64,000 nt of DNA, from assembly GCA_964252035.1 (NCBI GenBank), contig OZ176201.1, one strand, 5' to 3'. Under the pieces are notes generated by a model that was not told the origin of the DNA, ran no database searches, and saw nothing but the letters and a program-made list of their open reading frames with translations. Both the position numbers and the translations under genes were made by a program. This DNA is from Podarcis erhardii (Eukaryota). This document shows positions 15,774 to 63,246 of the stretch, piece by piece (position 1 is the first letter of the stretch; each line of letters starts with the position of its first letter).

Positions 15774-17340
15774 AACTATATTTATTGCTTATTACTATAG
15801 TTATACTCCATGTTTGAGCTCAGATTGGATCCCATAATAGTTTACAGCAATTAAATAAATCACCAAGGTACAATGTAAACGAAATAATTTTTATGGCTGT
15901 TGTTGCCCTTAAAAGCTCCCAGGAATAGCAGCAGCAACAACAAAAGCATTGCAGATTTCTTTAAGGCTGATACTATACTATTGAAGAGTATAACCAATTG
16001 ATGATAAGAGCCACAAGATTTGATCCAAATTAGGTTTATGGGTGAATCAAATTTTCCCTCCGTCCTTACTCACTAGGTAATCCTTGTAGGCGGGTTTAGT
16101 GATGGCTGCTAGAGAGGATTTTAATGGATAATTAGGTTTGGGCTGCAACACTGAATATGCTGTTTGCTTCTGTGTGCTTGCTCTTGCAATTTTAGCAGTC
16201 ATGAAAAAGGAAGCAGGCACTTTCTCTTGGAAGCAAACTGATAAGACTGCAAACATATATATAGATCTGGGATCTTGAGCAAGAGGTTAGGTTTCTTCCA
16301 ATCCAGCCGTTCATAGTAGAGTGGCCCTTGAAATATCAAGGTTAATAGTATCTTCTGTACCGATAAGCGAGAAGATTTAATTCCAGACATCTAAATTGTA
16401 GTTGCTAGTGTTTAGTTTGGAATTAATAGAGTGACTACAGTGATCAATAACAGATATATTCAAAACATGTGCCTTTAATTCCCTATCTGTTCTGCTGCTT
16501 GCTGGAATGATCTAATGACCTTTCTGGGGGTGTTAATGAACAAGTTATTAATTAAAATGTGATCTTTATCCTTCACTTCTCTCAAATCATCCTTTCTGTT
16601 TGTATGAGGCTTCCACACTCTCTGCATGAGAGAAGCAATACCTGTCCCCTGCAGTACCCTGGAAGGTTTTGGCCTTTTTGTCCCTTTTGACTTTAATCTA
16701 TTGTTCTGTTCAAGGTTACTTTGAAAACACCAGGTTGTCTTACTCGGTGTCACAGTTTTCACCTTTGTTTCTAATGCTGGACTGTTTATGCTTGCCCATA
16801 TAATCATATTCCAATCCCCCCTTGGCTTCTGGGAACTTTGCTCTCATCCTGTAACTGCAGGTTTCCTCCTCTTGCTAGAGTGAGCCTAGAAGAGGGAGCT
16901 GTGACCTTGCACAGCAGTTATTTGTAAGCAACAATATTAATTCACGAGTTTTCCCCTGTCTCATCACATCACACATTGCAGCAAGCTGACCTCTTTCTCT
17001 CCAGGTGGGTTTACTGTGGAACCAAGATATGCAACCGTCTGTGACTTTTTGCAATGCAAAAGGACTCTTAGTACGTCTTCTCAAACTGAGCTGTATATTA
17101 ATGTTTAGCTTTCAATGTTAAGGGCGACAACAACAATGGTTCCTCACTTACAGGAATTACTGAGAATTACAATTGCTGGATTTTATTGCCTTTGCCAGTT
17201 CTCTGATATAAATAGAAGAGGTTATCCCAGTAATCAGTATGGAAGTAGCCTACCCTCCTCACAACCTTCAATTTATGTGATAGGTGGTAAAGGAGTTGAA
17301 GGTTCTATCTGTGTAACACAACTACCATATATAAAAATAT

Positions 17341-20966: not shown

Positions 20967-21112
20967 TATTTTTATTATTTACAACCCACCCATCTGGCTG
21001 GGTTTCCCCAGCCACTCTGGGCAGCTTACAGCACATATAGAAACATAATAAAACATTAAACATTATAAACTTCCCAATGCAGGGTTGCCTTCAGATGTCT
21101 TCTAAAAGTATA

Positions 21113-21340
21113 AAACAAAATAAAAAAAATCCTTCCAGTAGCACCTTAAAGACCAACTGAGTTAGTTCTAGGTATGAGCTTTCGTGTGCATGCACACTTC
21201 TTCAGATACACATCTGAAGAAGTGTGCATGCACACGAAAGCTCATACCTAGAACTAACTCAGTTGGTCTTTAAGGTGCTACTGGAAGGATTTTTTTTATT
21301 TTGTTTTGACCATGGCAGACCAACACGGCTACCTATCTGT
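21113..21340. mobile_element. Penelope-like element: inverted pair of pseudo-LTRs
   Basis: Perfect inverted repeat (arms 21112-21207 and 21212-21307, loop ACAC) plus a right-hand extension ending ACCTATCTGT. Flanked by 13-bp TSD TTCTAAAAGTATA (21100-21112, 21341-21353). Confidence 0.85.
21172..21209 (-). ncRNA. Minimal type I hammerhead ribozyme (Penelope-associated)
   Basis: Minus strand reads GUAU-CUGAAGA-A-GUGUGC(AU)GCACAC-GAA-AGCU-C/AUAC: stem I GUAU:AUAC, core CUGANGA and GAAA, stem II 6 bp, palindromic stem III AGCU, and a UC cleavage site. The plus-strand copy at 21212-21247 keeps only 2 bp of stem I. Confidence 0.75.
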
Positions 21341-36003: not shown

Positions 36004-36150
36004 AGTTACAGATAGGTAGCCGTGTTGGTCTGCCATAGTCAAAACAAAACAAATTCCTTCCAGTAGCACCTTAAAGACCAACTAAGTCAGTTCTCAGAAC
36101 TGACTTAGTTGGTCTTTAAGGTGCTACTGGAAGGAATTTGTTTTGTTTTG
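36004..36150. mobile_element. Penelope-like inverted pseudo-LTR pair lacking the ribozyme
   Basis: Perfect 55-bp arms 36040-36094 and 36096-36150 with a 1-nt loop; same terminal ACAGATAGGTAGCCGTGTTGGTCTGCC as the 21113 element; TSD TTCAATTTTTC (35993-36003, 36151-36161). Confidence 0.85.
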
Positions 36151-37023: not shown

Positions 37024-37524
37024 TGTCAGCAACTGGGCAGAGGAGGAGTGGTGGAGACCGCCTGTGCAGCCTGACCCTTCCAGAGAAGAAGAAGACAGTT
37101 CAGAATTACAACAGGGGTTTGAGGGAGATCACAGCTCAGAGGCAGATGAGGAAGAAAGCTGGGAAATAATGGGAGAGGAGGAGGAAGAAGAAGAAGCACC
37201 AGGGGGTGACAGTTGACGGACACAGTGTCTTTAGAAAGCATTTCAGACCCACCCCTCTCCCAGAACCCGGCAAGCATTGAAAATAGGAGAGCAAAGAGCT
37301 CAAAGGCAGAGGGCATTTTTCAGCACACATAGCGATGACGCATGAGGAAGTGGGAGAGACGGAGGGGGTGGAGTCTCACTCAGGACAACGCCATTATTCC
37401 AAGAGGCTGCATTCCCAAGCCTCTCTCTGTAAATACTGAAGAAAAAGCAGTTGGTAAGGACTTTTCCTTGTCTTATCCGTCCCTGGCAACCTGCCGTAGG
37501 GGTTGGTTTCTCTGCCGCCTAACA
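37024..37524 (+). mobile_element. Solo LTR (501 bp) with a relic reading frame
   Basis: TGTCAG...CTAACA near-inverted ends; 5-bp TSD CTTGA/CTTCA; peptide-level homology to 61784-62297. Confidence 0.8.
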
Positions 37525-61576: not shown

Positions 61577-61783
61577 ATTAGGAAGACTGACTCACCTATT
61601 GTATCAACGTGTAAGAGAAGCCAGGCGGACTATTCCATCTCCTGGCACCCACGTGTACAGCATGAAGGTCTGCAGAGAGGGAGCTGCTTCTTCCCTGCGC
61701 AGAGGGCAGTAGGTGGAGCCAGTTGGACCATGTGATGTTGGGAGCAGGACTTGTCCATGCAGCCCTGCTCACTAGTCACATGT

Positions 61784-62297
61784 TGTTAGAGACCGTGCTG
61801 AGGAGGGCTGCACAGATGAGGAATAGTGGGAGCCTCCCCCTCCCCCTGCTCCTACTCTTGAATCTTCCCAGGAGCAGGAGGACAGTATAGATTTGGAACA
61901 GTGGTTTGCAGAGGGACATAGTTCAGAAGGCAGAAGCTGGGAAATACTGGATGGGGAACAGCTAGGAGAAGAAACACCGGAAGAGAGAGGGTTAACAGAT
62001 TCACAGTCTCTGGACAGCATCCCTCTGCTCAACCCAAGGTCAAGAAGAGCTCAGAAAGTGTCGAAACAGAAAGCACAGAGGGTACAAGCTCAGATTAACA
62101 AGGTGCAGGAGTGACATAGATTAATAGGGACAGAAGGGGGTGTGATCCTTAATTGGGAGCACTGCCATTTCTAGGAAATGTGTTCTTTGTTCTCTTGCTG
62201 TGATTATTAAAGTTTCTAACTGGTAAGACGTTCCTATCTTTGATCTGCTTATCTACTGCCATGGGGGGGGGGGGAGCCGATTTCCCAGAGTCTGACA
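61784..62297 (+). mobile_element. Solo LTR (514 bp) with a nearly intact reading frame
   Basis: TGTTAG...CTGACA ends; perfect 5-bp TSD CATGT (61779-61783, 62298-62302); ATTAAA near 62206; frame open from 61785 to the stop at 62114 except for one TAG. Confidence 0.85.
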
Positions 62298-63246
62298 CAT
62301 GTGGATAGATTGTGTGAGTCGTTCTTCTGAGCAAGGCTGGTCCTTCTGGCCATGTGCAGTGTCAGGTGTTGCCTTGCTATATGTATCTTATCCATGCGTA
62401 ACAGCTGGCATCCCTGACAGATGTCTGCAGATCTTTATGAGACCTTATTTCTTTCTCAGAGATTTACATGCAGCTTTTTGCAGCATTCTACAGTGGGTTT
62501 TCTAGTCCGCTAACAAAGTAATAATGATATTTATTGTTCTGTTTATCATTAAAATGCCAAGAGGCCCACCGTTAAAATGCCAGGACACCCAGAGTCCAAC
62601 AAAATAGTCCAGGGAACAAAATCACCATTGCGTTTCAGAATGATTTCCCATTAAATTTTATTTTTATTAATATTTAATGCAATAAAACAACATATTAGGC
62701 TGCTGTACTTAACGTTCCAGCTATGCTGCAATTATTGCCCATCCTCTTAGGCCCCTTCATCACAAAATAATCTGGCTACAGGCATGCATGAAGCTCACCC
62801 CTATTTCATCTTTCCAGTTCCATTGTTGCTGTTCTTTGTCCAAAGCCTAAAAGTCCTCTCAGGCAGACAAAGGTCTTTTTTCTCCCCCATTTTGGTTATG
62901 GATTTGAATGTGCTATTAACACAGTGGAGACCAAATATGTCATTGGCAGCTGCAGGCATTGGTTTACAATACAAATGTGCAATGATTAAGTCACTTAGTA
63001 AAAAAAAAAAAGGGGGGGGGGAGAAGGGAAGCAAGAGAGAACACACAGACCAACATTTTCTGATTTTGAGCCTTTGTGTTTGAATCTGGAGCAAAGCATA
63101 TTGTATTTGAAATAAGAGAAGAAGCTGCTTCCCACATAGACGGAATAATTATCAGTAATTTGTAGCCAAAATGAGCCTTAAACAAAATATAATTTGGAAT
63201 ATATCCATTCACCCATCTGAAATGAGTTGCAGTGTATATGTGTATA

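Follow-up and report, generated by a model that had tools for sequence, protein, structure and literature searches.

The locus and its features

The window that was analysed, a stretch of 64,000 nucleotides from Podarcis erhardii (contig OZ176201.1 of assembly GCA_964252035.1), contains a solo LTR with the relic of a reading frame that begins at the second base of the repeat (Table 1). As an earlier note on this DNA had stated, the LTR starts with TG at 61784 and ends with CA at 62296-62297, with CATGT on both sides. Equally, the translation quoted there from 61785 is reproduced exactly, with a single internal stop at codon 14, and the codon pairs quoted for the HSSE, LTD and SL.SI motifs are found both in this LTR and in the related LTR at 37024. 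The alignment of the two LTRs motif by motif stands as far as the presence of the motifs is concerned, but the copy at 37024 is frameshifted, with the motifs spread over all three frames. Of the proposed peptide of about 110 aa the frame holds, but the last approximately six residues (NKVQE) are peculiar to the window copy, because 25 of the 29 other copies of its subfamily are one base longer or shorter than it near LTR position 313.

Table 1. Coordinates of the two solo LTRs and of the parts of the reading frame in the window
Feature	Position	Strand	Basis
Left target-site duplication, 5 bp, CATGT	61779..61783	.	identical to 62298-62302
Right target-site duplication, CATGT	62298..62302	.	identical to 61779-61783
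Solo LTR, Ty3/Gypsy chromovirus, subfamily A	61784..62297	+	TG...CA ends, 5-bp target-site duplication, family copies
Relic of LTR-encoded frame, likely post-chromodomain integrase tail, 109 codons + stop	61785..62114	+	selection; junctions
Acidic, Pro/Trp-containing part, predicted mostly coil	61785..62030	+	charge; AlphaFold model
Basic part, (S/N)P-R-x-R then Ala/Gln/Lys-rich, predicted helix	62031..62096	+	candidate NLS or nucleic-acid-binding stretch
Solo LTR, sister subfamily B, frame with frameshifts	37024..37524	+	target-site duplication 4/5; shared motifs

The window copy is a neutral relic with no sign of function, its frame being broken at codon 14 and shifted by one base near 62097. 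When stops in the frame of the subfamily were looked for, the codon-14 stop was encountered in only 3 of 30 copies. Elsewhere in the window, two perfect palindromes at 21112-21307 and 36040-36150, with arms of 96 and 55 nt (100% complementary), belong to one MITE-like repeat family, a related piece of which lies at 17334.

Copy number and subfamilies

LTRs of the window type are referred to as subfamily A and those of the 37024 type as subfamily B, while subfamilies C and D were sampled via LTRs that share 76% and 68% identity with the window LTR. A search of the genome DNA with the window LTR gave 1757 candidates, 40 of which were scored (85-100% identity), and a search with the 37024 LTR gave 2767. 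Solo LTRs are common, since exact 5-bp target-site duplications flank many copies of all four subfamilies (12/30 A, 11/30 B, 11/25 C and 4/25 D), with 19 of the 30 A copies showing a duplication if up to one mismatch is allowed. The frame is open throughout in 5/30 A and 1/30 B copies. Copies of A and B are spread over many contigs and positions. Partial reads from three RNA runs of another organism, mostly 90-95% alike, cover both strands over the LTR, with next to no reads on the flanks of the window LTR, and are uninformative for the locus. Other LTR families at L061 and L065 (~1514) start with TGTCAGGGAC and equally show a base-2 frame with an acidic or Trp-containing opening.

The frame was coding in the source elements

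Real copies were aligned as DNA, blind to the frame, and pairwise dN/dS was calculated net of the divergence within subfamilies, with a bootstrap over codons. Without weighting, dN/dS understates omega (the other frames come to about 0.8); within subfamilies these frames reach about 1 once transitions carry a weight of 3, and the weighted omegas are therefore relied on. Between subfamilies A and B, pS is 0.755-0.773, which is near saturation, and pN is 0.312-0.315, an asymmetry absent in the other forward frames; the conservation goes well beyond what chance would give. The proposal of the earlier note that purifying selection had acted on a coding segment is borne out by the A-B omega of 0.27 (CI 0.11-0.51), far from 1, as compared to 2.28 and 1.50 in the other forward frames, a signal which survives removal of CpG-prone codons. 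Comparison of D with B gives 0.31 (0-0.55) and of C with D 0.47 (0.25-0.91), while the values for A and C (0.83, 0.41-1.90) and for A and D (0.66, 0.37-1.23) are not significant after transition correction. Within each of the four subfamilies omega is 0.60-0.72, with upper confidence limits of 0.78-0.97 and values of 0.93-1.24 in the other frames.

Each of the other five frames carries 2-6 stop sites common to at least half of the 30 A copies. Together with omega below 1 in the frame under study, these shared stops establish that the frame coded for protein in the elements from which the copies stem; decay of the solo copies came afterwards, and purifying selection acted in the source elements and not on the window solo copy. 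The sequence of the tail is GAG-rich and of low complexity and finds no Pfam or Atlas match, as would be expected if the open frame simply resulted from the purine-rich make-up of the LTR or from signals conserved in its DNA. To this explanation we attach practically no weight, since dN lies far below dS only in this frame and, as a weaker shadow (0.38 unweighted), in the reverse frame that shares its third position, and since it is refuted by the codon periodicity of the A-B differences, which amount to 0.35, 0.36 and 0.52 at the three codon positions.

Junctions between Pol and the LTR

Scanning by pattern for LTR starts preceded by a purine tract gave 16 places, five of which have remnants of a Gypsy integrase and a chromodomain directly upstream, with SH3_Tf2-1 (Pfam) in one of the upstream stretches; L062, with the polypurine tract (PPT) present and the upstream chromodomain absent, was left out of this count. 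At the five B-type junctions the purine tract is of one length. In three of them the chromodomain Trp lies exactly 39 codons before base 2 of the LTR, in frame; indels upstream of the tract are present in the remaining two. Collinear chromodomain remnants precede B-, C- and D-type LTRs, and L223 preserves gag-PR-RT-RH-IN remnants, collinear with intact Pol, before a D-type LTR 68% identical to the window LTR. The copies with internal DNA thus identify the element as a Ty3/Gypsy chromovirus. Repeated genome searches retrieved neither a junction copy nor an internal region of subfamily A, and a search for the 5' LTR and PBS of the broken A-D elements found none.

An ORF crossing the PPT into the LTR, as the earlier note had envisaged, is accordingly seen in frame in three of the five B junctions. 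The three copies nearest to the window LTR that retain a chromodomain (L132, L133 and L134, 68-76% identical to it), on the other hand, are all off frame in the same phase. The changes of the purine tract in these three copies differ in length and all three carry other stops or shifts; the off-frame junctions may be assembly errors or true lesions. They raise the alternative that in the lineage of A, C and D the tail was uncoupled from Pol at the tract and was either produced by recoding through a +1 shift or persisted as a non-translated relic with the LTRs amplifying. The common phase of all three junctions, two of which have a stop right at the LTR border, and the A-C omega not below 1 favour this alternative. 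We nevertheless judge it improbable, as the three changes differ in position as well as in length, all three copies are broken elsewhere and slips near the tract occur in young elements too (L120 and L126). In addition, a pure relic is at odds with the omegas, which lie below 1 for the C-D comparison and inside each of A, C and D; the latter values argue that the tail was still translated in this lineage. To our knowledge, there is no shared shift motif at the three off-frame junctions.

Intact relatives in young chromovirus families

A search with a stretch of the integrase found young families, from which 16 regions, chosen for long open frames, were fetched. Nine of these regions, from three families, combine paired LTRs, 98-99.8% identical, with a Pol ORF that runs at least 100 codons into the 3' LTR, the extension amounting to 100-117 codons where the boundary is clean. 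Of the other regions, one likewise reads through but preserves its 5' LTR in part; in two the ORF is cut short by a slip ahead of the tract, and the last four are old or lack a paired LTR. In the best 57 equal-scoring matches listed, 39 ORFs are at least 1608 aa long and six, of 1496-1524 aa, are short by about the length of the tail; two short ORFs among the 16 regions fall outside these 57 matches. By Pfam, the three read-through ORFs that were scanned contain RH, IN, SH3_Tf2-1 and Chromo in all cases and RT in two, and no env was seen in these intact relatives. The public wall-lizard protein P0003, annotated as Gypsy integrase-like, includes a young-family tail (95% identity).

Between copies, the young-family tails differ at 13 synonymous versus 15 non-synonymous codons in one comparison and at 24 versus 23 in another. 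No similarity to the window tail is detectable (8-80 of 100 shuffles score as high), so that the young families support the architecture by analogy only, position and length being shared and sequence not. In six of seven intact elements the 5' LTR is followed by 10-11 bases that are the complement of an LTR site at position 280-392, as in a self-primer. On this basis transcription would begin at LTR position 280-392, close to the tail's end or beyond it, which would place the tail in or almost wholly in U3. The PBS of L123 and that of L127 differ at two positions; the complement of each is found in the LTR of the same element, at 280, a pattern that looks like self-primer covariation. For the intact relatives, the idea that the peptide is fused to gag at the 5' LTR was discarded, since a stop closes their frame within the LTR.

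Coding sequence that overlaps U3 is familiar from MMTV sag and lentiviral nef, which are separate accessory genes with their own start or a spliced RNA. The location of the lizard frame in the likely U3 part and the selection on it would suit an accessory ORF of this kind, expressed from a spliced or LTR-internal RNA. Such an origin is nonetheless very improbable, as the frame lacks a start codon and opens at base 2 of the LTR, runs on from Gypsy Pol in three intact families as well as in subfamily B, and is preceded by a purine tract and not by the pyrimidine tract of a splice acceptor, in a Gypsy element in whose scanned intact relatives env is not seen. The comparison with sag and nef drawn in the earlier note is consequently not supported, and for its option of a spliced exon no support was found. 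Its further suggestion, that the frame is the C-terminus of an ORF entering the 3' LTR, is the most likely one in view of the selection and of the junctions in subfamily B and the young families. The ORF concerned is Pol itself, just after the chromodomain of the integrase; the earlier note had not recognised the peptide as pol.

We therefore consider it probable that the frame represents the C-terminal tail of the Pol polyprotein, that is of the integrase, of a Ty3/Gypsy chromovirus, which passes via the PPT about 110 codons into the 3' LTR, and that the window holds a broken solo-LTR relic of it. Pol would be read past the chromodomain and through the polypurine tract, about 110 codons into the 3' LTR. 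The genomic RNA presumably ends in R of the 3' LTR and hence would include U3, so that translation of the tail would need no separate ATG. The copy of the tail in the 5' LTR, on the other hand, would remain silent, since it would lie upstream of the start of transcription and ends in a stop. Recombination between LTRs would then have left the solo copies, followed by neutral decay.

Several features of the related elements may be mentioned in addition. L116-L119, L124 and L125 (e.g. G000:C3:9586000-9594999) constitute a very young family with LTRs 98-99.8% identical and single gag-pol ORFs of about 1620-1630 aa. In several families (L121, L122, L123, L127, L090-L107) an acidic insert of 35-100 residues lies between the chromodomain and the PPT, so that the integrase tail is lengthened on both sides of the tract. 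Older chromovirus internal regions on contig C19 of G000 account for 19 of the first 30 integrase-stretch matches listed, a share of old copies as expected of a repeat-rich, low-recombination chromosome. Young LTR elements with repeats 98-100% identical are located at L081 4098-7733 and L082 3386-7368 (both in oriented coordinates, opposite strand) and at L083 3242-8140; the ones in L081 and L082 resemble copia and are nested in or adjacent to old Gypsy copies.

Comparison with known systems

With respect to classification, TG...CA ends, target-site duplications of 4-5 bp and the Pol order PR-RT-RH-IN upstream of the PPT (in L223, D-type) characterise the element as Ty3/Gypsy, and a chromodomain at the integrase C-terminus, in 3/3 intact relatives and as remnants before B, C and D LTRs, as a chromovirus. 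Features of an endogenous retrovirus are not seen, with Gypsy-type domains only and no separately initiated U3 ORF.

Overlap of Pol with the LTR is itself already known. In plant CRM group A, the gag-pol ORF runs through the PPT into the 3' LTR, whose sequence specifies the CR motif as the integrase's C-terminus (PMC3059260), with this LTR-encoded motif replacing the chromodomain (PMC6317226); the Pol ORF of beet Bingo1-4 and Bingo7 is described to extend likewise into the 3' LTR (PMC3605345). The likeness to CRM group A, with Pol entering the 3' LTR in subfamily B and in three young families, is one of architecture. In contrast to CRM group A, the lizard element keeps a canonical chromodomain upstream of the PPT and adds about 110 LTR-encoded residues, and it lives in a vertebrate. 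The chromodomain is not replaced by a CR motif, canonical Chromo being found in 3/3 intact relatives scanned. The combination of chromodomain and LTR-encoded tail in a lizard is thus a variant of a known arrangement. No description of a Pol-LTR overlap in reptiles was found in a literature search that had Repbase, Dfam, subscription journals and supplements outside its range.

The Tf1/sushi group is resembled in the order PR-RT-RH-IN-SH3-chromodomain, a likeness drawn from features and not from a tree with named members, and perhaps, as far as the intact relatives go, in the self-primer-like PBS of six out of seven, self-priming being described for Tf1/sushi (bioRxiv 2022.12.06.519325). Equally, the ends of the window LTR fit the Sushi att motifs TGTYANR...CNTNACA as given in one table of the source (PMC3601003 Table 3). 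In the partial texts at hand, on the other hand, the group is presented with no mention of an ORF that reaches 100 codons into the LTR. Ty1 integrase is described as having a disordered C-terminal module with an NLS and a targeting domain (PMC8487063; PMC7459421). The likeness of the lizard tail, a disordered integrase C-terminus with short motifs, is a functional analogy only, as Ty1 is a copia element whose tail is not LTR-encoded and which shows no sequence homology.

Composition and possible role of the tail

In open copies the first two thirds of the tail have a net charge of -20 and the last third has +8 in subfamily A and +2 in subfamily B. The AlphaFold model of copy L024 predicts a helix at 86-111 (pLDDT about 80-91) and coil for the acidic part save a helix of six residues, with a pTM of 0.26. 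Conserved islands are E-E-W-W-x-P-P, E-D-S-x-x-L-x-Q, H-S-S-E, S-W-E, L-T-D-S-x-S-L and S-P-R, with the SP-R motif present in subfamilies B, C and D. A Pfam search with a 95-aa open stretch gave no family at E up to 10, and ESM Atlas no usable match to the tail. None of 137 candidates was a longer protein sharing the peptide, which counts as weak evidence. Profile searches of 1.84 billion representatives gave four and then seven matches, all of them LTR-type pieces and none with recognisable Pol.

Short motifs in a disordered chain suggest, by analogy with Ty1 integrase, an import signal and partner-binding sites. Tentatively, the tail may be viewed as a disordered integrase tail in which a basic helix would act as NLS or bind nucleic acid and short acidic and Trp-containing motifs would mediate interactions, and it would be a candidate second targeting or import signal beside the chromodomain. 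The activation domain that the earlier note saw in the acidic W-containing motifs is likewise hypothetical. A more far-reaching suggestion, of rather low likelihood, is that lizard chromoviruses evolved an LTR-encoded integrase module beside the chromodomain, convergent with plant CRM, in which the fast-evolving acidic/Trp plus basic tail picks a chromatin partner of the host or controls nuclear import and, in the lineage of the window LTR, is perhaps joined to Pol by recoding at the PPT. Each LTR would then be both a promoter and a targeting gene, with thousands of ready-made exons for interaction motifs scattered through the genome.

With the frame read as the LTR-encoded end of Pol, an orphan conserved peptide in thousands of solo LTRs would find its explanation as a hidden piece of integrase, and overlap of Pol with the LTR would be the rule for no fewer than four of the genome's chromovirus families. 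The dating and alignment of these LTRs are affected, because part of them evolved as protein. The LTR peptide can also contaminate gene models, two public models containing pieces of it. The two named matches of the profile searches are such automated wall-lizard gene models, SPARC and endophilin-A2, and might be cited in favour of a co-opted host exon or gene. For the window copy this is scarcely credible, considering its codon-14 stop and its own one-base shift, differences among A copies that are spread almost evenly over the three codon positions (0.098, 0.105 and 0.105) and a fully open frame in so few of the A copies. The pieces in these models (P0008, P0009 and P0011, wall-lizard SPARC and endophilin-A2) comprise 40 residues of the LTR peptide and are either prediction errors or exonised LTRs.
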